A stretch of DNA of 64,000 nucleotides, taken from Chloroflexota bacterium. GTDB taxonomy: Bacteria; Chloroflexota; UBA11872. Where the stretch lies: contig CBDBOH010000003.1 in the NCBI GenBank assembly GCA_965208215.1, forward strand, positions 1,470,880-1,534,879, read 5' to 3'. Shown piece by piece: positions 1 through 59,207 of the stretch; position 1 is the first letter of the stretch, and each line of letters opens with the position of its first letter. Position numbers and translations under genes: made by a program. Below the pieces are notes generated by a model, which had not been told where the DNA came from, made no database searches, and saw nothing but the letters and a program-made list of their open reading frames with translations.

Positions 1-2386
1 TGCGTTCCCAGGACGCTCTCAGGTCGCCGTGGGGCGTGGGGACCACGCCGTTGGCCCAGTCCAGCACGCCGGGGTTCGGGTGAATCCGGCAGGTCTGGAA
101 GCCCGGACCGGTTGGGGTCACGCCCAGGAGGTCGGTCGTAAGCGCCACGCCGGCCCCCACCGCGCTCACATGGGTGAGGCTGCGCGGGGCGGCGTGACGC
201 ATCTGGTGGCGCGTGGCGACCTGTTCGTCCGAGGTGATGGGGTCGTGATGCGACAGGAAGGGGCCCCACGCTTCCCAGACCGTGGGGTTGTCCATGAGTT
301 CGAGCATGGGGCGGAAGCGCTCGCGGACTCCGTTCAGGGCCGGCGTCGACAGCCCGACTCGGAGTAGCGCGGTGAGCACGTCGCCGAAGTAGGCGGGAGT
401 TGCCGGCGTCAGCGACGGATCCCGGGCGCTCAGTTTGGCAGCGATCCGCTCGGCCTGTTCGGGCGTCGCTACGCCGTGGATCAGGGCCAGCGCGTTGCCG
501 TGTTCGCTGGCGAGTCCGGTGAGCTTCCCGCGGTGGTAGCTGTCTTCGTAGAGGCCGCGCTCGGGGTTCCAAAAGACGCGGCGGATCCGGGCCCGGACCG
601 ATTGCGTGATGCCGGTCCAGCGGCGCGCGTCCGCCTTGTGATCCAGCTGCTCGGCCAGCCAGGCGGCAGCCTCCAGGCCGATGGAGTAGAAGATGTTGGT
701 GGCCAGATTGGCGCCTCGCAGGTCCACGGGCGCCCAGTCCAGCCAGTTCCAGCCGGGCAGGTCACGCAGCAGGCCCAGGCTATCCCGGTACGGTTCGAAC
801 CAGTCGATCTGCCGCTGCACGCTGGGGTACAGGTCTTCCGCTACGTCGCGTCGCCCGGTAAAGAGGTAGTGCTCACGAACGTTCAGGCTCCAGGCCAGCA
901 GGTGCTGGGGGATGAAGATGCGTGGATCGAGCCGGGCCGGCGGGAAGGTGATCTCCAGCCTGCCGTCACCCCGATCCGTGGCGGGAAAGGATCGCAGCAG
1001 CCGGTCGGCCAGCGACAGGTCGCCGTAGGCGAGGTACATACCCGGGATTCCCTGACGCGGGTCGCCGCCGGCCCATTGCGCGCGTTCGCGCCAGGCGTCG
1101 CCGGTTAGCGTGTCCTCCATGTTCAGATAGACGGTGTCGGCGCAGGCCGTCCACAGTTTTGTGAGCAGCGGATCGGCGCAGGCGAAGGCGCCGCGCCGCT
1201 CGGCCGGGTACTCGTACGAGTTCAGCGAGATGCCGCGGATGCGGACCGGGGTCTCGGGGCTGCGGACAGTGAGATGCAGGTAGCGAAACTGGCGATAGGC
1301 CGCCACCTCCCAGACCTGCTCACCGGCGCGGGCCAGGTAGCGGTCCGCAACTGGGAGCCTGGACGGCACGCGGTTGTCGACTAGCAGCTGGTCGTAGGTC
1401 AGGTCCATCTTCGCGCCCGGCGGGGCGTCCAGCCGGATGCGTGGAAAGCCAAAGAGCTGGCGACCGAAGTCAAGCACCAGGAAGGGCTGGCGGATGCCGT
1501 GCCCGGCGACGAGGGCGCCCTGGAACAGGGCGGCGGTGTCGTCGCCGGTGAGGACCGCTTCCGGCCGCTCGGCACGCGTGTGTTCCAGGGGAAGCCGGAG
1601 CTCGGCGGCCAGGAGGCGCGCCACGTCGAGCCTTGACCGGCGCCGGCGTTTCGCGGGCGGGCCGTAGGCGAACGCGGGGGGTTCCTGGTCGATCACCTCG
1701 CCGACCGTCACCACCCGGGTTGGTCGAACCTCGCGCTCTCGCAGCAGCGGCGTCGAACGCGGCTCCAGCAGGAACCAGTCCAACTCGCGGGGCGGAATCT
1801 CCCAGGCCGGGGACCAGCCCGAGTCGTCGAATTCCAGCCGAATCCAGTCCGGCGGGTCGGCGCTGGCGTCGAAGACCTCAGGGCTGCCGAAGGTTCCCTC
1901 GAGCGGCGGCACGTCCCGGCTCCAGGCCGTGGCCGGTCGCAGCTTCCAGCGGGAATCAGTGCCAAACACCTCGGACGTGCCGTCCGGTCGTGAGATCTCC
2001 AGTTCCGCCCAGAGGCCGGCGCGTTCGCCCACGGTGTAGGGGTTGCCGCTCTGCGAGTGCCAGCCCTCTCCCTGGCTCGCCGCGCCGTAGTGATAGGCGC
2101 GGACCGCGATGACGTTTGCGCCGGAACGGAGCCTGGAGGCCACGTCGTACGTGTCGTAGCTCTTGCGCCTGGGATCGCTGCGCGCCGGGCCGCGGCCCAT
2201 GAGTGCCCCGTTGACGTACACGACGTAGCGATCCGATGCCGTGATGTGCAGGCGCGCCCGGCCGGGCTGCCGGGCAAGCGCAAATGAGCGGCGGACGTAC
2301 AGATAGCAGTGGTAGGGCCTGGGCTCGCCCCGGCACCAGATCCAGACGCCGGTCCGTTGACTCGATGGAGACACGCCGGCCGTCAT
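1..2386 (-). CDS. alpha-L-rhamnosidase, GH78 family (3'-partial, runs off left edge of window)
   Basis: Unterminated minus-strand ORF starting at ATG 2386; absent from ORF track because no stop lies in the window. Hand translation gives MTAGVSPSSQRTGVWIWCRGEPRPYHCYLYVRRSF...ITASDRYVVYVNG...YHYGAASQGEGWH... and a C-terminal region ...NPTVWEAWGPFLSHHDP...HVSAVGAGVALTTDLLGVTPTGPGFQTCRIHPNPG...PTPHGDLRASW. These motifs are typical of bacterial rhamnosidase N-terminal and catalytic/C-terminal domains. Frame checked at three points (2386, 1318, 7). No ORF of 60 aa or more is listed in this frame anywhere in 1-2400, consistent with one continuous ORF. Confidence 0.55.
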   Translation of the reverse strand, partial: MTAGVSPSSQRTGVWIWCRGEPRPYHCYLYVRRSFALARQPGRARLHITASDRYVVYVNGALMGRGPARSDPRRKSYDTYDVASRLRSGANVIAVRAYHYGAASQGEGWHSQSGNPYTVGERAGLWAELEISRPDGTSEVFGTDSRWKLRPATAWSRDVPPLEGTFGSPEVFDASADPPDWIRLEFDDSGWSPAWEIPPRELDWFLLEPRSTPLLREREVRPTRVVTVGEVIDQEPPAFAYGPPAKRRRRSRLDVARLLAAELRLPLEHTRAERPEAVLTGDDTAALFQGALVAGHGIRQPFLVLDFGRQLFGFPRIRLDAPPGAKMDLTYDQLLVDNRVPSRLPVADRYLARAGEQVWEVAAYRQFRYLHLTVRSPETPVRIRGISLNSYEYPAERRGAFACADPLLTKLWTACADTVYLNMEDTLTGDAWRERAQWAGGDPRQGIPGMYLAYGDLSLADRLLRSFPATDRGDGRLEITFPPARLDPRIFIPQHLLAWSLNVREHYLFTGRRDVAEDLYPSVQRQIDWFEPYRDSLGLLRDLPGWNWLDWAPVDLRGANLATNIFYSIGLEAAAWLAEQLDHKADARRWTGITQSVRARIRRVFWNPERGLYEDSYHRGKLTGLASEHGNALALIHGVATPEQAERIAAKLSARDPSLTPATPAYFGDVLTALLRVGLSTPALNGVRERFRPMLELMDNPTVWEAWGPFLSHHDPITSDEQVATRHQMRHAAPRSLTHVSAVGAGVALTTDLLGVTPTGPGFQTCRIHPNPGVLDWANGVVPTPHGDLRASWER

Positions 2387-5969: not shown

Positions 5970-6163
5970 CCGTCGACGACCGGAGATCGTCTCTAGCGGC
6001 TGACCAGCAGTGCCACAGCCAGTCCGGGGCGCGCCGGTGCTGACGGGCAGCCGACTGCGGAGGGCCACCGGACCGCCCGCGGCCGCGCGATCCTTGGAAT
6101 GAAGGAACGAATGGCGCCGTGCGTGCGTAATCTCTACAGACGGAACACTGCTTCCCAAACCGG

Positions 6164-9100
6164 ATGATGCGCACCCGTCTGCCAGTGCGTGCTCAATGGC
6201 GCAGCCTGCCGAGGGCGCTGGGGCCGTTGGTTGGGGCCGTGTGCCTTGGGCTGGTCGCGGTTCTGCAGCCCGTGGCGCAGGCGCAGGGGCCCAGTCCCGG
6301 TCCGGCGCTGCTTCCGACGGCGGCGGTCGAGCCTCCGAGGCCGGACCAGCGGTTCGTGACCGTGAGCAGCGGCAATTTCCATACGTGCGCCCTCCAGGCG
6401 AATGGCGAAGTCCTGTGTTGGGGGGCCGAGCCGCCTGGTGAGACGGCTGACGTCGGACCAGTTGGCTTCGGCCAGGCGTTGCCGCCAGCCGGCGAACGCT
6501 TCGTGGCCATCAGCAGCGGCGGCTTTCACACCTGCGGCCTGCGGGACGACGGAAGCGCGGCGTGCTGGGGCGCCGATCCGGGCGGCCAGTCCGAGGACCT
6601 GGGGCAGGTGGGCTTCGGCCAGACCTCGCCGCCGAATGGCGAGGCCTTTACCGCCATTAGCAGTGGCGGTACGCACACGTGCGGGCTGCGTGGGGATGGC
6701 TCGGTGGCCTGCTGGGGGAACGACGAGTCCGGCCAGGCCTCGCCGCCCGACGAGGAGCGGTTCACGGTGATCACCAGCGGCGCGAATCACTCCTGTGGCG
6801 TTCGCGAGGACGGAACCGTCGTCTGTTGGGGGCCGGAGCCGGGTCCTGGTCCGTTCGGAGGCTGGGAAGCTCCCCCGGAAGCCGCCTTCGGGTCGATCGA
6901 CGGGGCCCACGGCTATACGTGCGGCGTGCCGCTGGAAGGCCCGCCGTTCTGCTGGGGGAGCTATTCGGAGACTCCCAATCTCGCGAGGTATCCGCCGCCG
7001 GATCTTTGGCTCATCGCCGTTAGCGGCGGCGGGGGGCACGCCTGCGGGCTCCGGAAGGACGGAATGCCGGTGTGCTGGGGGGATCTGCCGGACAGCCCGC
7101 CGCCGGGGCAGCGCTTCGCGTCGCTCAGCAGCGGGATGGGGCACACCTGCGGGCTACGCGCCGACGACGGCACGGTGGCCTGCTGGGGCGACGATTCGTA
7201 TGGGCAGGCGTCCCCGCCCGAAGGTGCGCGGTACCTGGGTTCCGAGCCCGTCCCGCCCGATCCCTACGATCCTGGGGCGCCGCTGGTGGCGCTGAGCAGC
7301 GGCGGTGGACACGTCTGCGGTATCACCAATGAAGGCTTCGCCTGGTGCGCAGGCAACGACCATTACGGTCAGGCATCGCCGCCGCCCGGTGTGAAGTTCG
7401 CCTCCATCAGCAGCGGCTCGTTTCACACCTGCGGCATTCGCCTGGATGGCGTGGCCGTTTGCTGGGGGGATGACGAGGACGGTGAGTCCTCGCCGCCGGC
7501 AGGCGAGCGGTTCGTCTCAATCAGCAGCAGCGCCGGCCGTACCTGCGCCCTCCGGGAAGACGGTACGCCTGTCTGCTGGGGCCGCGAGAGCGCCGAAGAA
7601 ACGGCGGCGGTGGCGGCCGAGCAATTCAGCGCTATCAGTGCCGGCTGGGGCCACGCCTGTGCGTTGCGGGCGGACGGCACGGCCGTCTGCTGGGGGAGTA
7701 ACTGGGGAGGTCAGGCCACGCCGCCTGAGGATCAGAGGTTCACGGCCATCAGCACTGGCTGGGACCACACCTGCGCCTTGCGCGAGGACGGCGCAGCCGT
7801 CTGCTGGGGCCGCGATCAGTACGGCCAGGCGTCCCCGCCGGAGCACGAGCGCTTCGTGGATATCAGCACGAACACTTACCACACCTGCGCGCTGAGAGAA
7901 GACGGTACGCCCGTATGTTGGGGCGCAGCCGATCCCTGGGGGGACTACGGCCAGGCGTCCCCCCGTCCAGGGGATCGGTTTGTGTCGGTGAGCAGTGGCG
8001 ACAACTTCACCTGCGGCCTGCGGGCGGACGGCACCTACGGGTGCTGGCGCTTCGGCCCCGCGAATCTCGGGTTCGACCTCGACACCGTCGGCCGCGAGGG
8101 ATTCCGGGCGGTGCGCGATCAAGCGCTGACTGCCGTGAGCAGCGGCAACCGGCATACCTGCGCGATTGGTGCGGACGGCACGCTGCGGTGCTGGGGACTG
8201 AATGACTACGGTCAGGCCACGCCTCCCGCGGAGGGGACCTTCATCGCGGTCAGCAGCGGAGGGCGACATACGTGCGCCCTGCGCGACAACGGTGAGGCGA
8301 TCTGCTGGGGCGATGAGGCGGACGGCCGGACCCAGCCGCCGGCCGACGATCGGTTCGTCGCGATCAGCAGTGGATGGGCCCATACCTGTGCGCTGCGTGA
8401 GGACGGGTCGGCCGCTTGCTGGGGCAGGGACCATAACGGCCAGGCCGCACCGCCAGCGGACGAACGCTTCAGCGCCGTCAGTAGCGGGCTCACGCACACG
8501 TGCGCGCTGCGCCAGGATGGGTCGGCGGTGTGCTGGGGCCAAGACTACGACGGCCAAGCCTCGGCGCCGGAAGGCGCTCGGTTTGCCGCCATCAGCAGTG
8601 GCTCGGATTACACCTGCGCCCTGTACGAGGACGGCAGCCCGTTCTGCTGGGGCGATCCGGATGACGAGACGTCGACGCCGCCATATGTCGAGCGCTTCGT
8701 CGCGATCAGCACCGGCCCGGATCACGCGTGCGGACTGCGCGCCGACGGCACGCCGGTCTGCTGGGGCGAACGAAACGCGGTTGCTCCGCCCGACGTGCGC
8801 TTCGGTGCAATCAGCATCGGCGCGGTGCATACCTGCGCGCTGCGTACGGACGGCCGTCCCATCTGCTGGGGCACTGGCTTCCAGACACCGACCGAGTCGG
8901 CCAAGCGCTCGGAATTCGAGACGGTCAGCGTTCAGAGCTTCGTCGCCATCAGCAGTGGCTACGGGCACGTCTGCGCGCTGCGCGAGGACGGGTCGGTTGT
9001 CTGCTGGGGCTCGAGCGGAGCAGGGAAGACCGCGGCGCCGCAGGGCGAGACGTTCTCCTCGCTGACCAGCGGCGGCGATCACACGTGCGGGTTGCGTGCG

Positions 9101-12100
9101 GACGGCGTGGCCGTCTGCTGGGGCTACAACGAGCAGGGCCAGGCGTCGCCGCCGGAGGACGAGCGGTTTACGGCGCTCACCAGCGGCAGCTCTCACACCT
9201 GCGGGCTGCGTAGCGACGGCGCCGCGATCTGCTGGGGGAGCGACGACTACGGTCAGGCGTCGCCGCCCGAGGGCGTGCAGTTCACGGGGCTGAGCGCCGG
9301 CGAGCGCCACACCTGCGGCGTGCGCACCGATGGCCTGGCGATCTGCTGGGGAGACGACGAGCATGGCAAATCGACGCCATCCCAGGCCGAGAAATTTGTT
9401 GCCGTTAGTAGCGGCGAGGAGCACACCTGCGCGCTGCGCGCCGACGGCACCCCGGTCTGCTGGGGGATGGCCGGGAGCGTGACGTCACCGCCGCACGGCG
9501 TGGCGTTTACCGCGCTGAGCAGCGGCCACCAGCACACGTGTGGATTGCAGGCGGACGGGACGCCGGTCTGCTGGGGCTCAAACGCCGGCGGTTATGAAAC
9601 CCCTGGCGGGAGAGCCCTGGCGCCGCACGGCGAGCATCTCAGTGCGGTGAGCGGTGGCGGTGACTTCACGTGCGGCCTTCGCACTGACGGGACGCCGGTC
9701 TGCTGGGGCGGACGCTTCGAGTCCGGCGCGCCGCGCTATGCGCCTATCGCCGGCGGCCCGTTCGTTGCGGTCAGTAGCGGGGAGTTGCATACCTGCGCGC
9801 TGCGTGACGACGGGACGCCGGTCTGCTGGGGCGACGACACGCACGGTCAGGCGTCGCCCCCGGCGGACGCACGCTTCGTGGCCCTGAGCAGCGGCGAGCA
9901 ACACACCTGCGGGCTACTCGAGGATGGAGGGGCGGTGTGTTGGGGATCGAATCGAAACGGGCGGTCAACGCCGCCGGTCGATGAGCAGTTCGAGTTCCTT
10001 AGTAGCGGCTCAAGCCACAGTTGCGCGTTGAGGGCGGATGGATCCGCGGCGTGCTGGGGGCGCAACGACCAGGGGCAGGCCTCGCCACCAGAGGCCGAAT
10101 CGTTTGTGGCGATTGGCAGCGGCGGCGAGCATACTTGCGGCTTACGCGATGACGGATCCACCCTCTGCTGGGGCGCGGAAGACCGATCCAGCAGCTGGGG
10201 CAAGCTGTGGCCGCCTGAGCACGAGCGCTTTGTCGCCCTCAGTGTCGGGCCGGACCATACCTGTGCGCTGCGGGCGGACGGCACGCTCTGGTGCAGTACC
10301 GATTTCGATCAGTGGTCCGGGGTGTTCGAGGGCGAGCGGTTTGTGGCCATTAGCAGCGCCCGCGAGCGTTTGTGCGGCCTTCGGGACGACGGTTCGGTCG
10401 CCTGCTATGGCGACTTTCGTATCTACCTTCCGGTCAATCAGCCGTTCGTGTCGCTCAGCAGCGGGGCTCGGCACACCTGTGGGCTGCGCGAGGACGGCGC
10501 CATCCTGTGTTGGGGTCAGAACAACCGGGGCCAGGCGTCGCTCGAGAAGCCATACCGAACCGCTCTATCTGGTGAGCGATTCACATCCATCACAAGTGGA
10601 GGCCGCTACGCCTGCGCACTTCGCCAGGACGGGTCGCCCGTGTGCTGGGTGGCGCCCGACTCCAGGTGGTCCTCGCCCGACGACATTCCGGTGCCGCCGG
10701 ATGAGCAGCTGACGTCCATTAGCGGCGGGTCCGGGTACGTCTGTGGCCTCCGCCAGGACGGGTCGCCCGTGTGCTGGGGACGAGACTGGAACGGTCGAGC
10801 CGTGCCGCCGGAAGGCGAAGTGTTTGGGGCCACTAGTGCCGGCTCCGGGCATACCTGCGCGCTGCGTCCGGACGGCACGCCTGTGTGCTGGGGGAGAAAC
10901 GACGACGGTTCCGGTCGGCACGCCGGCGGGGCGTTGCCGCCGGCTGGCGAGCGCTTTACGACCATCAGCGTGGGCGCCTTCCACACCTGCGCCCTGCGCG
11001 AGGACGGAACCCCGGTGTGCTGGGGCAGTAACGAGGACGGGCGCGGGAATCCGGTTGGCCAGGCCTCGCCTCCGAGCGGCGAGCGATTTACGACCATCAC
11101 CAGTGCATCGCTTCACACGTGCGCCTTGCGCGAGGATGGGACGGCCGTCTGCTGGGGTGAGAACCACGACGGCCGGTCATCGCCACCGGACAACGAGTCG
11201 TTCATCGCGATCGACAGCGGCGCCGAACACACCTGCGGTATCCGCGCCGACGGTTCGGCCGTCTGCTGGGGGCAGGACTGGAACGGCCAGGCCTCGGCGC
11301 CCGCGGGCGAGACCTTTGCAGCCATCGGCAGTGGGCAGGATTTCAGCTGCGCCCTGCGCCAGAACGGAACCGCGACGTGCTGGGGCGAGGGATACCCCCG
11401 CCCGCCCGATGTGACACCGCCATACACCCCGCCAGCCCCGCCGCTGCCCAGCCCGCTGCCTGAATTCGTGGCCGTCACTTGCGGCAGCTTCCATACCTGT
11501 GCGCTCAGCGTGGACGGTCAGGCGATTTGCTGGGGCGGCTGGTCCGTAAATCGGCCGGTGTGGCCGCCGGAGGGTGAGCGGTTTATCGCGCTCAGTGGCG
11601 GGTGGAGTCACACGTGTGGGCTACGCGAGGACGGAACGGCCGTGTGCTGGGGTGTAGGCGTGGCCGTCGCCGAGTCGCCACCCACCGGCGAGAAGTTCAC
11701 CGCGCTGAGCAGCGGCTCGAGCCACACCTGCGGCTTGCGCGACGACGGGACCGCTGTGTGTTGGGGCTTCGACGACGACGGTCGAGCCGCGCCGCCGGCC
11801 GGCGAGCGGTTCACGATGCTCAGCAGTGGCGGCGCTCACACTTGCGGGCTACGCGCCGATGGGACCGCGGTCTGCTGGGGACGCGACGACGAAGGCCAGG
11901 CCTCGCCGCCCGCCGACGAGCGCTTTACGGCAATTGCCAGCGGCGGCGACCACACGTGCGGCTTGCGCGACGATGGGACCGTCCGCTGCTGGGGCGACAA
12001 GTCGGCCCCTCACGCGACGCCGCCGGTGGGCGAGACCTTTGTGGCCATCAGCAGCGACGACCACCGAACTTGTGGGCTGCGTAGCGACGGAACCGTGCTG

Positions 12101-12259
12101 TGCTGGGGATCCTTCCGACAGGGCGAAGACACGTCGCCCGACGACGTGCGGGTCACCACCATCAGCCTGGGTCGCGCACACACCTGTGGACTGGGCGCGG
12201 ACGGAACCGTCGCTTGCTGGGGGTCCGATGACGAGGGCCAGGTGTGGCCGCCGCGATGA
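6164..12259 (+). CDS. giant secreted RCC1-repeat (beta-propeller) protein, about 40 blades
   Basis: 2031-aa ORF with N-terminal signal peptide MMRTRLPVRAQWRSLPRALGPLVGAVCLGLVAVLQPVAQAQG. About 40 repeats of roughly 50 aa, F.AISSG..HTCGLR.DG.AVCWG....GQASPP.GERF. Two conserved Cys per repeat. Confidence 0.85.
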   Translation: MMRTRLPVRAQWRSLPRALGPLVGAVCLGLVAVLQPVAQAQGPSPGPALLPTAAVEPPRPDQRFVTVSSGNFHTCALQANGEVLCWGAEPPGETADVGPVGFGQALPPAGERFVAISSGGFHTCGLRDDGSAACWGADPGGQSEDLGQVGFGQTSPPNGEAFTAISSGGTHTCGLRGDGSVACWGNDESGQASPPDEERFTVITSGANHSCGVREDGTVVCWGPEPGPGPFGGWEAPPEAAFGSIDGAHGYTCGVPLEGPPFCWGSYSETPNLARYPPPDLWLIAVSGGGGHACGLRKDGMPVCWGDLPDSPPPGQRFASLSSGMGHTCGLRADDGTVACWGDDSYGQASPPEGARYLGSEPVPPDPYDPGAPLVALSSGGGHVCGITNEGFAWCAGNDHYGQASPPPGVKFASISSGSFHTCGIRLDGVAVCWGDDEDGESSPPAGERFVSISSSAGRTCALREDGTPVCWGRESAEETAAVAAEQFSAISAGWGHACALRADGTAVCWGSNWGGQATPPEDQRFTAISTGWDHTCALREDGAAVCWGRDQYGQASPPEHERFVDISTNTYHTCALREDGTPVCWGAADPWGDYGQASPRPGDRFVSVSSGDNFTCGLRADGTYGCWRFGPANLGFDLDTVGREGFRAVRDQALTAVSSGNRHTCAIGADGTLRCWGLNDYGQATPPAEGTFIAVSSGGRHTCALRDNGEAICWGDEADGRTQPPADDRFVAISSGWAHTCALREDGSAACWGRDHNGQAAPPADERFSAVSSGLTHTCALRQDGSAVCWGQDYDGQASAPEGARFAAISSGSDYTCALYEDGSPFCWGDPDDETSTPPYVERFVAISTGPDHACGLRADGTPVCWGERNAVAPPDVRFGAISIGAVHTCALRTDGRPICWGTGFQTPTESAKRSEFETVSVQSFVAISSGYGHVCALREDGSVVCWGSSGAGKTAAPQGETFSSLTSGGDHTCGLRADGVAVCWGYNEQGQASPPEDERFTALTSGSSHTCGLRSDGAAICWGSDDYGQASPPEGVQFTGLSAGERHTCGVRTDGLAICWGDDEHGKSTPSQAEKFVAVSSGEEHTCALRADGTPVCWGMAGSVTSPPHGVAFTALSSGHQHTCGLQADGTPVCWGSNAGGYETPGGRALAPHGEHLSAVSGGGDFTCGLRTDGTPVCWGGRFESGAPRYAPIAGGPFVAVSSGELHTCALRDDGTPVCWGDDTHGQASPPADARFVALSSGEQHTCGLLEDGGAVCWGSNRNGRSTPPVDEQFEFLSSGSSHSCALRADGSAACWGRNDQGQASPPEAESFVAIGSGGEHTCGLRDDGSTLCWGAEDRSSSWGKLWPPEHERFVALSVGPDHTCALRADGTLWCSTDFDQWSGVFEGERFVAISSARERLCGLRDDGSVACYGDFRIYLPVNQPFVSLSSGARHTCGLREDGAILCWGQNNRGQASLEKPYRTALSGERFTSITSGGRYACALRQDGSPVCWVAPDSRWSSPDDIPVPPDEQLTSISGGSGYVCGLRQDGSPVCWGRDWNGRAVPPEGEVFGATSAGSGHTCALRPDGTPVCWGRNDDGSGRHAGGALPPAGERFTTISVGAFHTCALREDGTPVCWGSNEDGRGNPVGQASPPSGERFTTITSASLHTCALREDGTAVCWGENHDGRSSPPDNESFIAIDSGAEHTCGIRADGSAVCWGQDWNGQASAPAGETFAAIGSGQDFSCALRQNGTATCWGEGYPRPPDVTPPYTPPAPPLPSPLPEFVAVTCGSFHTCALSVDGQAICWGGWSVNRPVWPPEGERFIALSGGWSHTCGLREDGTAVCWGVGVAVAESPPTGEKFTALSSGSSHTCGLRDDGTAVCWGFDDDGRAAPPAGERFTMLSSGGAHTCGLRADGTAVCWGRDDEGQASPPADERFTAIASGGDHTCGLRDDGTVRCWGDKSAPHATPPVGETFVAISSDDHRTCGLRSDGTVLCWGSFRQGEDTSPDDVRVTTISLGRAHTCGLGADGTVACWGSDDEGQVWPPR
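6330..12200 (+). repeat. nucleotide-level tandem repeats (about 150-nt period) encoding RCC1 blades
   Basis: Repeated codon blocks for HTCGLR/VCWG/GQASPP throughout the gene. They generate long GC-rich shadow ORFs on the opposite strand, e.g. 7517..9424 (-). Confidence 0.7.
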
Positions 12260-47659: not shown

Positions 47660-48004
47660 CTATTGCAGCGCGGACATCGCGTAGACGAACGCCACGAAAA
47701 GGAAGATGACCAGACCCCAAACAATGACCGGGATACCGAGGAAGCTCCCGCTGGAACCGGGCGAGGCCTGGGTCGGCCGCTGCTGCGCGCGTTCCCGCTC
47801 GGTTCGGTCACGCAGCCGGCGCAGGTTTTCGCTGATCTGGGGTGCGAAGCGACTGGGCTCGTCGCTTTCGGCCGCCGATCCGGCTTGTTGCCCCGACGTC
47901 TCCGCAGCCTGTTCCTGATCCTCCGGCCTCGGCAACTTCGCCCCGCAGTTGATGCAGAGCCAGGCACCCTCGGTGTTCTGGTGGTCGCACTCTTGACAGC
48001 GCAT
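47660..48004 (-). CDS. zinc-ribbon domain protein with C-terminal TM anchor
   Basis: MRCQECDHQNTEGAWLCINCGAKL ... GIPVIVWGLVIFLFVAFVYAMSALQ. Confidence 0.55.
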   Translation of the reverse strand: MRCQECDHQNTEGAWLCINCGAKLPRPEDQEQAAETSGQQAGSAAESDEPSRFAPQISENLRRLRDRTERERAQQRPTQASPGSSGSFLGIPVIVWGLVIFLFVAFVYAMSALQ

Positions 48005-48105
48005 GGCGCTCCGGTTCGGCCCGTGAGTTGCTGGTGGTGATTCATGCTAGCACCAGGCCGGGCGGGTGGCCGGAGGCGGAAATTGGCGGGGGGGGTGAAG
48101 GGGGG

Positions 48106-48158
48106 AACTGTCTCTCGCCAGCCCGCCCCCAGAGGGGGCGGGCTGGCGAGAGACAGTT
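48106..48158. repeat. perfect 25-bp inverted repeat with 3-nt loop (AACTGTCTCTCGCCAGCCCGCCCCC aga GGGGGCGGGCTGGCGAGAGACAGTT), flanked by G-runs
   Basis: Read directly from the sequence; no mismatches in the stem; no U-tract on either strand. Confidence 0.8.
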
Positions 48159-48532
48159 TGGGCGGATCTCTTGGGGGGTCGGCGACGAAAGTCGGGGCTG
48201 AGAGGGGGCGGCAGAACGGTTCCGGGGACGCCGGGTGCGCGGGCGCGCCGAGGGGGTGGGGCGGAAGCGTCTCAACCGGAAGTAGCCGGCATGAAACCGG
48301 CTCTTACGCAAGGTCAGGAACGAGCGGCGACGCTCGGTGACGGAAGGAGCGAGCAGGCGGAGGAGGCGGGCGAGCACGATGGTTCCGGGGGATGGACTGG
48401 GATAGGATGCCTCTAGTGTACACGATATGGTTACGAAGAGCAAGGGTGATGGGAGGAGGCGTGCGAGGAGCCGGGGAGGAGAGGACGCGAGGATGGCGAG
48501 GCCAGGAAGAAGCGGGGTGAGCGCGGCCTGGG

Positions 48533-48660
48533 ATGTGTTCAGTCGATTGGGGCGATGTGTTCAGTTTTTGGCCGAATGTGTTCAGTTTCCGGCCCGATGT
48601 GTTCACATTTCGGCCGGATGTGTTCACTTCTGAGGGTCAGGTGTTCAGTTTCGGGCGAGG
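48533..48660. repeat. array of 6 direct repeats with 21-bp period (consensus ATGTGTTCAGTTTYSGGCCGR)
   Basis: Units start at 48534, 48555, 48576, 48597, 48618 and 48639. Confidence 0.8.
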
Positions 48661-48741
48661 CGCGTCCCCCCTCACGGCCCCTTCGACAAGCTCAGGGCAG
48701 GCTCTTCGGCACGCTCAGGACAGGTCTCCGGGGACGCCGGG

Positions 48742-48868
48742 ATGTGTCCACTCTGTCGGGCCGATGTGTCCAGTTTTTGGCCGGATGTGTCCACTTTTCG
48801 GCCGAATGTGTCCAGTTTCGGGGGCAATGTGTCCACTTTGGCGGGGGAGGTGTCCAGTTCTCGGCGGC
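48742..48868. repeat. second array of 6 direct repeats with 21-bp period (consensus ATGTGTCCASTTTYSGGCCGR)
   Basis: Units start at 48743, 48764, 48785, 48806, 48827 and 48848. Begins 209 bp after array 1, and a similar ~130-bp tail follows each array. Confidence 0.8.
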
Positions 48869-49060
48869 GGGCGTGCCCTCGGTTCAGGGGCGACGGGATG
48901 GGACGGCCGCGGCCGGGGATCGGGCGCGGAAGGAAGTCGAGCCCCCCATTCGACAGACTCAGGGCTGGCTCTCGGCGGCCCCCGGGATGACAGAGAGGGC
49001 GGTTGCGGGGTTGAACAAGGATGGGCGGTGGTACTTGCCAAGGAGATTACGGTGGATTTG

Positions 49061-49083
49061 GCCCAATAAGGGCTATATTGGGC
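49061..49083. promoter_or_regulatory. palindromic operator-like site GCCCAATA-agggcta-TATTGGGC upstream of the antitoxin gene
   Basis: Perfect 8-bp inverted repeat with 7-bp spacer, 25 nt upstream of ATG 49108. Confidence 0.5.
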
Positions 49084-49107: not shown

Positions 49108-49440
49108 ATGCGTGGGCGTGAGGCGGTGACGGAGCGGGTGGCGGCGTCGCAGGCGAAGCGGGATTGGAGCAAGGTGATTAACCGCGCCTTCAGCGGCGAG
49201 GTCCGGTTTGTGGTGGAGAAGCATGGGACGCCGGTGGCGGGGATCGTTTCGGCCGACGACATTGAACGGCTGGCCGCGCTGGATGCGCGATGGGCCGAGG
49301 GACACGAAATCCTGAAGCGGTTCGGTCGGGCGTTTCGTGACCAGACAGCGGAAGAGATCGAGGAAGCCGTAGCTCAAGCGGTCGCCGAAGTGCGAGCCGA
49401 GAATCGAAGCGGGGCGGAGCTTCAACCTGTGCCTGAGTGA
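49108..49440 (+). CDS. Phd/YefM-like type II antitoxin
   Basis: MRGREAVTERVAASQAKRDWSKVINRAFSGEVRFVVEKHGTPVAGIVSADDIERL. SD AAAGGA upstream; stop overlaps the PIN gene start. Confidence 0.6.
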   Translation: MRGREAVTERVAASQAKRDWSKVINRAFSGEVRFVVEKHGTPVAGIVSADDIERLAALDARWAEGHEILKRFGRAFRDQTAEEIEEAVAQAVAEVRAENRSGAELQPVPE

Positions 49441-49883
49441 TTCGCGTCGTCGCGGACACAAATGTCCTGGCGTCGGGGCTGGCCGGATATGACGCTTTGG
49501 ATGGTCCGGCTGCGTATCTCCTGCGGGCGTGGCAGCAACGGCGCTTTGATCTCGTAGCGTCCGGCCCAATCTTCGAAGAACTCGAACGGACGCTTGCGAA
49601 GCCGTACTTCACGCAGCGCCTCGGGCCAACGGGCGCTTGGCGAGCGTTGGATTTTGTTCGCGAGGGCGCCCTATTGGTGATCGAGTTGGCCGACGTCCGG
49701 GGCGTGGCCACGACGCCGGCTGACGACTTGATCCTGGCTACCGCAGTCGCGGGAAGGGCGAGTCATCTCGTCACGGGCGATCGTCAGCTTCGCAACCTGG
49801 GCGAGTACCAGGGCGTGAGGGTTGTTGGACCGCGTGCGTTTGTGGACTGGCTGGATGCGGGGATGCCTGGGGATGTGGGGTGA
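49437..49883 (+). CDS. PIN-domain toxin (VapC-like)
   Basis: MIRVVADTNVLASG...DLILATAVAGRASHLVTGD. Confidence 0.7.
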   Translation: MIRVVADTNVLASGLAGYDALDGPAAYLLRAWQQRRFDLVASGPIFEELERTLAKPYFTQRLGPTGAWRALDFVREGALLVIELADVRGVATTPADDLILATAVAGRASHLVTGDRQLRNLGEYQGVRVVGPRAFVDWLDAGMPGDVG

Positions 49884-50117: not shown

Positions 50118-50501
50118 TTATGTGGGCGGGTATGTCGGGGTATCGTCAGACACGACCACGGAGCCGGTCCGTCCGTCATAGACCATCTGGGCGCTCAGGA
50201 GAAAGTCGCGCCCGAGCAAGACGCCAAAGTCGTAGCCCAACTCGGCTAGCCGCGTGCCTCCAAACCGACCATGCTTGCCGAGATTCAAGGCGGGCACCGT
50301 CAAGTTCGCCAAGTACTCCGGCGTCTCGTACGCGCCGGCTGCCGATCCGTAGGAACGTATATCCACGATTTGAAGTCTCGCGTCGAACGCGAGCTTGACG
50401 TCGATCGCGCTTTCGCGAGCGCCGGTGTCAATCAGGGCCAGCGAGGAATGGGAGCGCTCCGTGTCCGCGGGACGTCCGATCGCGACCCGAATGATCGGAC
50501 C
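50118..50501 (-). CDS. retropepsin-like (clan AA) aspartic protease; stop-to-stop ORF with no canonical start codon before the DTGA active site
   Basis: GPIIRVAIGRPADTERSHSSLALIDTGARESAIDVKLAFDARLQIVDIRSYGSAAGAYETPEYLANLTVPALNLGKHGRFGGTRLAELGYDFGVLLGRDFLLSAQMVYDGRTGSVVV. TAA lies immediately upstream. The only ATG/GTG (50366) lies after the catalytic DTGA. Confidence 0.4.
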   Translation of the reverse strand, partial: GPIIRVAIGRPADTERSHSSLALIDTGARESAIDVKLAFDARLQIVDIRSYGSAAGAYETPEYLANLTVPALNLGKHGRFGGTRLAELGYDFGVLLGRDFLLSAQMVYDGRTGSVVVSDDTPTYPPT

Positions 50502-50554: not shown

Positions 50555-50881
50555 CTAGAGCAACCCGAACGCCAGCGCTGGCGGCAGCTGGCGAACGCGC
50601 TCATCTCCCACCTCTCGAATGTGGTACGGCCCGCCGCCAAACCTGTCAATTGCGGCCTCCGCTGCGTCTTCGAAGGTTTCGTAGATGTCCACCAGCTCCC
50701 GGTTGCGCACGATCACCCACTTGCCCAGATGTTCCGCCTCGAGTTCGGCCCGCATTTCGTCATACGCCGCAATCTCGCGCCGAATGGCGTCCATTGCCGC
50801 CTGGTCAACGTACTTCTCGTGTTCCACCGGGCTGCCGGGATCCATGGCCACCCTTTCAGCGCGCTCGTGTCCCAGGTACAC
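50555..50881 (-). CDS. small hypothetical protein (DUF5678-like C-terminal region) upstream of the protease
   Basis: ...HLGKWVIVRNRELVDIYETFEDAAEAAIDRFGGGPYHIREVG; possible internal start at M13. Confidence 0.4.
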   Translation of the reverse strand: MYLGHERAERVAMDPGSPVEHEKYVDQAAMDAIRREIAAYDEMRAELEAEHLGKWVIVRNRELVDIYETFEDAAEAAIDRFGGGPYHIREVGDERVRQLPPALAFGLL

Positions 50882-57597: not shown

Positions 57598-59207
57598 TTG
57601 GAACCGGCGAACTGCGTCCGGCATGCGTATTGCCAGGAAGCTCAGCGGGGCCGCGTAGGCCCGCCGTGCGGTCTGATGCGACTTGAGCTTGCGCCCCTGA
57701 ATCCCCGCGGCGGATCGTGGCCGGCCTTTCGGGCGACGGCGTACGGTCCCGACGCGTTCGGGCAGCGCCTGATTCCCCTGGCCCGGCGCTGGCAGCGCTA
57801 CCGAACGCTGAAATCGGCGCCGCGCGTCCTGACGATCAGCTTTGGCCTCGCGCTGCTCCTGGTTCTGGGCGCCGCCGCATTGGGACTGCCTCGCTTCGTC
57901 ATCATCTTGGTCCTGGGCGTGGCCATGATTCCGGTGGTTGCGTTGGTGGCGCGGGCCCTGGTGGCGCCGCCGCCGCTGGCCGCGGCGCTGGCCTACGACC
58001 GACGATTGGCCATGTTCGAGCGCCTTTCCACGGTAGTAGCGGGCTCGCGAGCCGACGAGCGCATGCGTGAATTGCAGCGCCGTGATGCGATTCAAGCCCT
58101 GGAAGCCGTCAATCCTTCACTTGCGTTTCCATATCGAGTGCCCCGCGCCGACCTGGGAGTCGTGGCCGTCGCCGCCGCGGCTCTGGCTCTTGGCATGCTG
58201 GCCGCGACCACAGACGTACTGCCTCGCCTGGGTGAACCAGCGCCGCATTCGGCGCTGGCGGAGAGCCTGGGTACGGCGGGCGACGGCGCGGCGCCCGCGC
58301 TCGCGGATCCGGCCGTGCTGGCACAGATCGACCAGATTCGAGCGGCGATGGCCGAACTGGAACGCCAGCGGGATCCCGAGGCCGCGCCCGCGGCGCTGGC
58401 CGCCGAGGCGGCCGGTGAGGCGATGCGACGGACAGCCGAGGGGCGGCGTCTCGGCCGAGCTCTGGACAGCGGCGATTTCCAGGCCGCCGCGGGCGAAGCG
58501 CGCGAACTGGGCGAGCAAATCTCCGGCATGAACAGCACGCGCATGGATGAGCTGGCGGACGGATTGAGGGAAGCGTCGGAACGCGCCGAGGGCCTGGACG
58601 AGGGACTGGCGAACCAGTTGCGGGCGGCGGCCGACGCGCTGGAAGCCGGGCAACTGGCCGACGCCCGCAGCGCACTCTCGCAACTGGCCCAGGAGATCGA
58701 AACCGTTGGGGCCACGGTCCAGGCCGACAGAGGACTCGAAGCGCAACTCGATCAGTTGGCGCGACAACTCGCCGAGGCCGAGGCGTTGGGCGGGGACGGC
58801 CTACCTGGAGCCGAGGGGGATTCGCTCGGGGACGCGGCGGCCGCCGCGGCAGCGGCGGCGGCGGATGCGAGTGCGGATGCGAGTGCGGATGCGAGTGCGG
58901 AGGGCAACGCCGGATCGCTGGGCGGCGGAGACTCCGTAGCGAGCGGACAGGCGCTGGAGGGCACGCTGGAAACCCTGGCACCGGAACAGCGGCTCAATGT
59001 GGACGGCAAACTCGAGGTCGTTGAAATCAAGCCGACCGAGGAGGGCGCTGAGGTGGTCGAGCGTCCGGTTCTGGAACTTGGACCCGGCGGATCGTCAGGA
59101 TTCGAGGCCTCGGCCGGCGACCGCGGATTCGCGGTTGGGCGGCCGGACGTGGCCCGGAATGTTCCACTCGATATGCTGCCAATGCTGGATCGTTACTTCA
59201 GCGAGCC

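Follow-up and report, generated by a model that had tools for sequence, protein, structure and literature searches.

The iterons of RK2, R6K, pSC101, P1 and F are direct repeats of 17-22 bp, which are spaced at about 21-22 bp, gathered in clusters of 3-9 and bound cooperatively on one face of the DNA. The bacterial interspersed mosaic elements (BIMEs) of E. coli, with their repetitive extragenic palindromic (REP) units, and the Correia elements of Neisseria are dispersed intergenic mosaics of repeats that contain a palindrome, differ from strain to strain and can include promoters or terminators. Short head-to-tail sites of about 21-23 bp are also found at the ends of Tn7 (the 22-bp sites of TnsB), of Mu (the MuA sites) and of insertion sequences (IS) of the IS481 family such as ISRm20 (two sub-repeats of about 23 bp), where the N-terminal DNA-binding domain of a DDE transposase recognises them. 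This report addresses two arrays of 21-bp direct repeats in 64,000 nucleotides of a Chloroflexota genome (contig CBDBOH010000003.1), a stretch that is called the window throughout. From comparison with related loci, the repeat units are probably phased sites for helix-turn-helix (HTH) domains of the IS481 transposase type, set within a dispersed cassette of promoter, non-coding RNA and palindrome, and not a replication origin.

The arrays resemble transposon ends in having short sites of 21-23 bp, head to tail, and in the kind of domain proposed to read them. Unlike those ends, which hold 2-4 sites, the window has six units in each of two arrays, all pointing one way and without an inverse partner end; its cassette has neither a cleavage terminus nor a transposase gene, sets two specificities side by side, and attaches the arrays to a promoter, an RNA and a palindrome. 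Unlike an IS481 insertion sequence, the window carries no DDE (rve) transposase gene with an N-terminal HTH, and it has in common with IS481 inverted repeats (IRs) only the inner 9-mer (TGAACACAT or TGGACACAT), in one orientation and without a TGT...GGGGACAT terminus. A miniature inverted-repeat transposable element (MITE) differs as well, given that the ends of the cassette are dissimilar (arrays versus palindrome), that no target-site duplication is definable and that paralogues are about 70-77% identical. Iterons mark a single origin beside a rep gene, whereas the window arrays belong to a family that is repeated many times on the chromosome, lacks a rep gene and has no counterpart in plasmid or phage collections. 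The cassette comes closest to the BIME or Correia type of mosaic extragenic element, built round amplified transposase-binding sites, but it is much larger (about 0.9 kb), it has long arrays of a transposase-binding motif and a conserved RNA segment, and its palindrome never stands alone. The eukaryotic elements Galileo, Foldback and Tetris (PMC3688188, PMC4079207) have transposase-binding motifs amplified to tandem arrays, which can seed satellite-like arrays; unlike the cassette, they use THAP or other binding domains and carry the arrays in both long terminal inverted repeats.

Each array is made of six head-to-tail units of about 21 bp, with the core ATGTGTTCA in array 1 and ATGTGTCCA in array 2 (Table 1). 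The sequence-only reading, an earlier description made from the letters of the window without database searches, had placed both arrays correctly: when up to one mismatch is allowed, the 12-nt pattern ATGTGTYCASTT matches 12 times in 64 kb, always on the plus strand and always within the two arrays, against a mean of 0.30 and a maximum of 2 in shuffled sequence, and Tandem Repeats Finder gives a period of 21 for both. Unit 1 of each array is 22 bp long and the other units are 21 bp, with unit 6 beginning AGGTGT. Arrays and leaders together form a duplicated block of about 209 bp (48530-48669 against 48739-48878, 74% identity at a spacing of 209), as had been proposed. The similar tail described after each array is a separate small dispersed repeat, CCCCTTCGACAAGCTCAGGGCAGGCTCT, which starts at 48678, 48701 and 48945 and recurs beside arrays at other loci. 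A T-tract occupies unit positions 11-14 in every unit and is phased at 21 bp. The geometry of protein-binding direct repeats with two helical turns per unit was recognised rightly, and the earlier option of a multimerising regulator comes close to the reading supported here, which is one of phased HTH sites.

Several other origins for the units were considered and rejected. A coding heptad repeat is ruled out, as the frame is broken by units of 20, 22, 23 and 32 bp in related arrays; the earlier view that the open reading frames (ORFs) over the arrays merely translate the repeats is sound, since the 22-bp units break their frame. Hairpin arrays or a spacer palindrome (TTCGGCCGAA) were dismissed because there is no covariation in the unit spacers, which fits recognition of double-stranded DNA, and the irregular unit spacings among related arrays likewise do not belong to RNA or DNA hairpin arrays. 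Boxes for DnaA, LexA and PhoP do not agree with the core and have no supporting context. The small repeats (48678-48728 and 48945-48972 in the window, and also at L007, L017 and L302, where L numbers designate related loci) accompany the arrays as leaders, and in spurious ORFs they translate to the peptides 'LSLSKG' / 'FDKLRAG' and 'VVSLSNH'.

The units bear the mark of selection. In an alignment of 13 related loci with a T array and a C array, the mean pairwise identity is 0.93 at core positions 1-10, 0.64 at spacer positions 11-21, and 0.59 in the flanks and the inter-array DNA. At position 7, all 73 cells of array 1 have T and all 77 of array 2 have C. Within one genome, the stretch between palindrome and arrays is only about 70-77% identical from one paralogue to another, which makes the copies old. 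The alignment shows that the core and its T or C identity have been upheld by purifying selection and not by recent amplification.

Arrays of this kind are dispersed over the chromosomes of one group within the Chloroflexota. One genome per species was scanned for three phased cores TGTGTNCA at 21-bp spacing, and more than 109 stretches were returned, about 60 of which share the full unit consensus ATGTGTYCAS-TTTY-N-GG-SS-N-R. All of these roughly 60 loci come from Chloroflexota metagenome-assembled genomes (MAGs) with 61-68% GC, obtained from sponge, marine and soil samples. A chromosome carries at least 5-6 array loci, for instance at 256, 2152, 2480, 2560, 2832 and 3304 kb of CBDHGI010000006.1 and at 456, 1864, 3144, 3344 and 3792 kb of OZ240251.1. 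Family arrays contain 3-12 units, related spacings including 20, 22, 23 and 32 bp; they are nearly always intergenic and usually uniform for T or C at core position 7, and a T array is frequently paired with a C array 120-280 bp away, in either order. The genes around them are diverse, with no conserved partner gene. The promoter motif of the cassette is absent from the viral contigs. The sequence-only reading had raised the case of a known dispersed chromosomal repeat family; the family is dispersed, but it does not seem to have been described before. In the literature nothing relevant was found on the array motif or on repeat elements of Chloroflexota, and no bacterial description of amplified transposase-binding-site arrays, and the cassette family is apparently new. 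Repeats that share the TGTGTNCA seed in unrelated 21-bp tandem arrays (the viral contigs L111-L150, and L003, L019, L020, L024, L039 and others) include GTGTGTTCATATTGAGCGAGG in low-GC phage contigs and an array of 63 units in a Metamycoplasmataceae contig; they were rejected as family members, as the rest of the unit and the GC content differ.

The link to transposases comes from locus L305, which carries a complete IS481-family element (about 340-1620, minus strand, with a probable target duplication TGGG) inside a remnant of portal, small-subunit and terminase genes. The IRs of this element are about 52 bp long and each holds the array core TGAACACAT twice, with the inverse copy after the stop codon; the core of these sub-repeats is identical to the 9-bp core of the window. 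The left end reads TGTGCAGACCGGGGACATCA-TGAACACAT-GTTCGGGGACATAG-TGAACACAT, and the stretch before the first core is GGGGACATCA. ISRm20, the closest named relative (53% identity), has an IR framework of the same kind, GGGGACAT-NN-9mer-GTTCGGGGAGAT-NN-9mer, with the 9-mers CTGACGGGT and CTGACACGT and the helix SPD. A like framework that joins another 9-mer to another helix marks the 9-mer as the variable, element-specific recognition motif.

The same HTH was found next to arrays in six loci (L030, L050, L072, L076, L097 and L307), where a gene of 482-498 amino acids takes the place of the RNA segment, its start codon about 50 bp past the array end and the palindrome about 125 nt past its stop. 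The product is a relative of the terminase large subunit (PHROG_2, 3e-22; ATPase domain against P74-26 TerL, 4znj, 1e-10) with an extra N-terminal HTH (Pfam HTH_28 and HTH_23; NCBIfam transpos_IS481). This HTH, M(K/S)D(P/R)RAEF(L/V)ALARQPGANRRAL(F/C)RRFGI(SHT/APA)TGYKW, is nearly equal to the N-terminus of the L305 transposase, MREQRAEFVALARQPGANRRALCRRFGIAPATAYKW. AlphaFold places residues 1-45 in a confident three-helix bundle in which residues 28-30 begin helix 3; the predicted local distance difference test (pLDDT) exceeds 90 for residues 1-40 and drops after about 45, and the rest of the single-sequence model of the fusion is poor. T arrays go with GI-APA-TGYKW (L050, L307) and C arrays with GI-SHT-TGYKW (L030, L072, L076, L097), a match in 7 of 7 cases when the L305 element (APA, T-type) is counted. 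L050 and L097 are the closest pair, at 94% identity, yet they are unlike in both helix and site type, and L307, about 82% identical to either, yet shares APA and T with L050. These loci show both the identity of the array core with the motif repeated in the IRs and the covariation of helix with site type. If the reading is true, the two forms would constitute a natural recognition-code pair (APA/T and SHT/C) for an IS481-type HTH, which is directly testable, and the gene would be a rare fusion of a transposase HTH with a phage terminase large subunit.

The fusion genes lie at 3345-5177 in L030, 519-2339 in L050, 303-2102 in L097 and about 3320-5105 in L307, and an older, truncated copy of the terminase lies immediately past CCCCCCTTCACCCC in L050, L097 and L307. 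A homology search with the HTH by itself returned only fragments of the HTH-terminase fusion gene. Chloroflexota homologues of the terminase (about 62-83%) in portal/small-subunit/terminase remnants have no arrays and no palindrome, and a general association with terminases was discarded because phage terminases (23-30% identity) lack arrays, palindrome and promoter motif alike. Derivation of the cassette by deletion of a terminase gene was likewise rejected, as no terminase remnants lie between arrays and palindrome.

The arrays are one module of a composite non-coding cassette of about 0.9 kb. On the minus strand its order is (TGGACACAT N12)x6, leader, (TGAACACAT N12)x6, promoter, C-rich RNA, palindrome and CCCCCCTTCACCCCC. 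The earlier account of a non-coding region of about 1 kb holds for protein coding, but the predicted promoter, the non-coding transcript and the 53-bp palindrome went unmentioned. The most conserved block between array and palindrome, read on the minus strand, consists of CTTGCC/TTGACN, 17 nt (with CGTAATCA...GTG) and TACACT/TACAAT, which is the form of the predicted promoter. It lies between arrays and palindrome in 25 of 31 loci with a fixed spacer of 17-18 nt, once per locus, and the motif is single in the window. An equivalent form is present 5' of the terminase genes in L030, L303 and L307 and, for that reason, looks like an ordinary strong promoter of the clade. This conserved promoter would point away from the arrays, toward a C-rich RNA of about 300 nt and a perfect palindrome of 50-57 bp, and the minus strand would be the one transcribed. 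In 22 of 23 loci, 184-310 nt separate the predicted start from the hairpin; the exception, L098, has a MITE-like insert and a distance of 466 nt.

Substitutions between promoter and palindrome lack 3-periodicity (0.28, 0.27, 0.23). A small protein from the minus-strand transcript was rejected on the lack of codon periodicity, and also because the sole long ORF crosses the palindrome in a frame that is not kept between copies. RNAalifold finds little conserved structure in the C-rich segment apart from the terminal palindrome, and no known RNA family matched. The MITE-like element, with the termini GGCCTTTGCATAACCC...GGGTTATGCAAAGGTC, is inserted in the RNA segment of L098, and part of it fills the cassette's orthologous place at L301 (6010-6300).

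Nearly every locus with sufficient flank has a perfect palindrome, 290-600 bp from the arrays on a constant side, with arms of 21-27 bp, a centre of 2-5 nt and the flanks GGGGGTGAAGGGGGG and TTGGGCGGATTT. In about 600 kb searched, 34 family palindromes were found, 31 of them no more than 1 kb from an array and the other three split from their array by an inserted gene; there is no case of a family palindrome without an array, and the motif is single in the window. The alignment of 22 copies has compensatory double changes in 15 of 26 pairs and G-U in only 2 of about 570 cells, and many copies are symmetric through the centre (CCCCTTAAGGGG, CCCCCTAGGGGG). Such strict Watson-Crick pairing suggests that the palindrome is kept at the level of DNA rather than as an RNA stem. 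Taken as a terminator, it offers a stem that is followed by UUCCCCCCUUCACCCC on the minus strand (no U-tract) and by an interrupted T-tract on the plus strand, and a terminator scan called none at this place. In about 28 of 36 loci the palindrome is followed, 45-190 nt on, by the start of a co-oriented gene; many of these loci are orthologous, so that the count overstates their independence.

From these parts, we infer that the HTH would physically bind the 21-bp units, T-type sites (TGAACACAT) being read by proteins with an APA helix and C-type sites (TGGACACAT) by proteins with an SHT helix. Spacing of 21 bp, that is two helical turns, together with the phased T-tract would set the sites on one DNA face and allow several HTH proteins to load side by side, and such siting should favour cooperative loading. 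Binding may then control the adjacent promoter or titrate proteins of the transposase type, or loading may serve movement of the cassette; the constant position and orientation beside a strong promoter suggests a role among these three. If so, a bacterial transposase-binding motif would have been amplified to long phased arrays within a conserved multi-copy cassette with promoter and non-coding RNA, and DNA of transposon ends would have been exapted as modules for regulation or titration.

A number of points weigh against this interpretation of the units as transposase-type HTH sites. The 64-kb window has neither an IS481-type transposase nor an HTH-terminase gene, and tblastn of the L305 transposase against it gave no match. 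In the terminase loci the HTH codons are about 50-150 bp from the arrays, and the agreement in 6 of 6 loci may partly reflect one co-inherited recombination block. A single full-length IS copy was recovered, of T-type, with no C-type counterpart bearing an SHT helix. The array spacers are YSGGCCGAAAAC versus GTTCGGGGACATAG in the IRs of the IS, and the period is 21 versus 23 bp, and hence the arrays are not simple copies of the IRs. Arrays stand 5' of the promoter in RNA cassettes but 3' of it in terminase loci, which is awkward for a single regulatory model. Additionally, a generic promoter consensus scan called nothing at 48415-48444.

The orthologous locus, fetched from other genomes through homologues of the window methyltransferase, reveals the cassette as a discrete unit of insertion or deletion. 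The zinc-ribbon and 114-aa genes are divergent in L296 (73% identity) and L298 (77%), with about 205 bp and no cassette between them; the chromosome of L296 bears at least 6 arrays elsewhere. L301 (83%) has another small insert with no arrays. L302 (90%) has the cassette only, with about 5 C units, 2 T units, promoter, C-rich segment, palindrome and C-rich tail, and lacks the toxin-antitoxin pair that follows in the window; the pair is consequently no part of the unit. The toxin-antitoxin pair and two further ORFs have been added separately, on the array side, and orthologues do not all have the same number of units (6+6 in the window, about 5+2 in L302). No target-site duplication is definable at the orthologous sites compared.

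The first alternative, an unlikely one, treats the cassette as a non-autonomous mobile element that an IS481-type transposase moves in trans. The arrays would be its loading end and the palindrome its other end, with promoter and RNA as passengers or with the promoter reading outward. In its favour are the empty site in L296 and L298, the cassette alone in L302 and the cassette with cargo in the window, as well as the many copies per genome and the variable content between array and palindrome, which may be the RNA, the terminase gene or an IS110 element. There is also a sharp boundary right after CCCCCCTTCACCCCC, which abuts a truncated older terminase gene in L050, L097 and L307. However, DDE transposases normally require two inverted ends, and neither end of the cassette has inverted arrays or an IS-type TGT...GGGGACAT terminus; the want of a target-site duplication and the age of the copies within a genome, unlike a recent burst, speak in the same direction.

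We regard it as distinctly doubtful that the arrays are operator or activator sites of a dedicated host transcription factor, with the likeness to the IS motif being incidental or the IS having copied a host motif. A constant orientation and position 5' of a conserved promoter would be expected of such sites, a conserved core with variable spacers is typical of factor-binding sites, and the T-tract phased at 21 bp in each unit is also in keeping with them. This explanation nevertheless leaves unaccounted for the exact 9-mer that occurs twice in both IRs of the IS, and the covariation of helix and site; nor is a candidate factor gene linked to the arrays, whose neighbours are diverse.

A further proposal, which must be rated quite improbable, concerns the fusion genes. 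A terminase-derived DNA motor and nuclease with a captured IS481 HTH would use the dispersed T and C arrays as chromosomal loading sites and the palindrome as a cutting or structural site, and the cassettes would serve as pac-like or transfer-initiation sites from which chromosomal segments are packaged or mobilised (compare gene-transfer agents, or clt/TraB of Streptomyces), or would form the ends of elements of a new class, mobilised by a terminase. The six loci with an array directly 5' of an HTH-terminase gene recall the R-sites of lambda cosB, to which terminase binds and which lie 5' of Nu1/A. Unlike lambda, the HTH of the fusion is transposase-derived and has not the small-terminase fold; the window has no terminase gene, and distant terminase homologues are without arrays.

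A neutral minisatellite, in which the units would arise by replication slippage without sequence-specific function, is scarcely tenable. Orthologues do differ in unit number (the window has 6+6 and L302 about 5+2), and family arrays range from 3 to 12 units. Yet units within an array vary in the spacer while keeping the core, a contrast that contradicts neutrality; paralogues with flanks of about 60-75% identity still share the core, and across 150 cells each array holds to its T or C state.

Finally, the proposal of the sequence-only reading that Rep proteins bind these units as iterons, at the origin of a plasmid, a phage or an integrative element, or that the arrays and the toxin-antitoxin pair make up a maintenance region, has next to no probability left: a cluster of 21-22-bp direct repeats in helical phase is the classic iteron geometry and the 3-kb insertion around it does bear such a pair, but the arrays occur at many chromosomal loci (at least 5-6) and match none of 72,556 plasmids and none of 50,697 phages, which excludes a replication origin or plasmid maintenance site, and beyond this the insertion has no rep, par or integrase gene, the conserved flanks have no rep or par, the GC skew is positive across the site without a change of sign, and L302 keeps the cassette without the pair.

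Table 1. Positions in the window of the cassette, its parts and the neighbouring toxin-antitoxin genes.
Feature	Position	Strand	Details
Extra DNA relative to L296/L298	48062..51064		about 3.0 kb; BLAST breakpoints at 48061 and 51065
Content of the 3.0-kb insertion			cassette about 48062-48990; Phd/PIN pair 49108-49883; minus-strand ORFs 50118-50501 and 50555-50881
Predicted C-rich non-coding transcript	48088..48409	-	about 300 nt; start about 7 nt past -10, runs through palindrome, ends CCCCCCTTCACCCCCCCC
Perfect palindrome	48106..48158		25-bp arms, 3-nt centre; flanks GGGGGGGGTGAAGGGGGG (48088-48105) and TTGGGCGGATCT
Predicted sigma70-type promoter CTTGCTCTTCGTAACCATATCGTGTACACT	48415..48444	-	-35 TTGCTC 48439-48444; 17-nt spacer with conserved CGTAAYCA; -10 TACACT 48416-48421
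T-type array (array 1)	48533..48660	-	(TGAACACAT + 12 nt) x6 on minus strand; promoter-proximal; core is the 9-mer repeated in the IRs of an IS481-family element (L305)
Array 1 unit starts	48533, 48555, 48576, 48597, 48618, 48639		
Small dispersed repeat CCCCTTCGACAAGCTCAGGGCAGGCTCT, two tandem copies between arrays	48678..48728		minus-strand reading GAGCCTGCCCTGAGCTTGTCGAAGGG; copies start 48678, 48701
C-type array (array 2)	48742..48868	-	(TGGACACAT + 12 nt) x6 on minus strand; promoter-distal
Array 2 unit starts	48742, 48764, 48785, 48806, 48827, 48848		
Third copy of small repeat CCCCTTCGACAAGCTCAGGGCAGGCTCT	48945..48972		past C-type array, no array attached; 86% identity to 48678 copy
Phd/YefM antitoxin	49108-49440	+	
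PIN_3 toxin	49437-49883	+	

The window has 67% GC and the arrays lie within a gap of about 1.1 kb. One flank, on the minus strand, consists of a 114-aa gene (47660-48004), a MidA-type methyltransferase and fumarase; the other, on the plus strand, of the Phd/YefM-PIN pair and, beyond it, a zinc-ribbon gene, Dtd and HisD. In the window and its orthologues the neighbours of the arrays are conserved housekeeping genes, with no rep or par. The toxin-antitoxin module that the sequence-only reading saw behind the arrays is real, as the Phd/YefM and PIN_3 genes of Table 1. A type III module with a ToxI-type repeat RNA was rejected, given that the promoter lies 3' of the arrays and points away from them, and that the neighbouring pair is of the protein type II (Phd/PIN). 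The pair has an operator-like palindrome of its own; the inverted repeat GCCCAATA-N7-TATTGGGC at 49061-49083, just 5' of the antitoxin start, is probably the toxin-antitoxin operator and unrelated to the arrays. The region has no tRNA and no Rfam family, and Rfam 15 gave zero matches at the gathering threshold in the window, with only hairpin look-alikes below it.

The two small minus-strand ORFs of the 3-kb insertion may be another pair of the toxin-antitoxin kind. Homologous pairs adjoin arrays in L059, L064 and L086, and a similarly arranged pair in L305 includes a weak match to Asp_protease_2. Small genes of toxin-antitoxin type are often found on the array side (L001, L004, L017, L026, L040, L045, L055, L079, L085 and L095); by eye, their translations were named as PIN, HicB, HigA-like HTH, MNT/HEPN and Phd, and in the same way an ORF at L021 7378-7704 was named Cas2-like. 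Transposase genes of the IS110 family adjoin arrays in L018, L040, L067 and L101, the one in L101 lying between palindrome and array. The IS110 family has a known taste for repeated or palindromic targets, which fits this siting.

For annotation, the cassettes account for one kind of long 'empty' intergenic region in Chloroflexota MAGs and probably for contig breaks there, and they call for caution before such arrays are named as origins or iterons. The palindrome and the C-rich tail are the exact points at which assemblies break off or degrade: L299 has a poly-C artefact at its contig end (1-120), and L302 has a run of N in the palindrome centre at about 6260. Array cassettes probably fragment MAG assemblies in this way. 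Elsewhere in the window, two 114-bp tandem repeats (9060-9367 and 11676-11994, about 2.7 copies each, 73-74% identity) lie in a very long ORF at 6131-12259 on the plus strand, which probably encodes a repeat-domain protein, and a perfect 12-bp tandem repeat, GCGGATGCGAGT, is present in 3.4 copies at 58861-58901.

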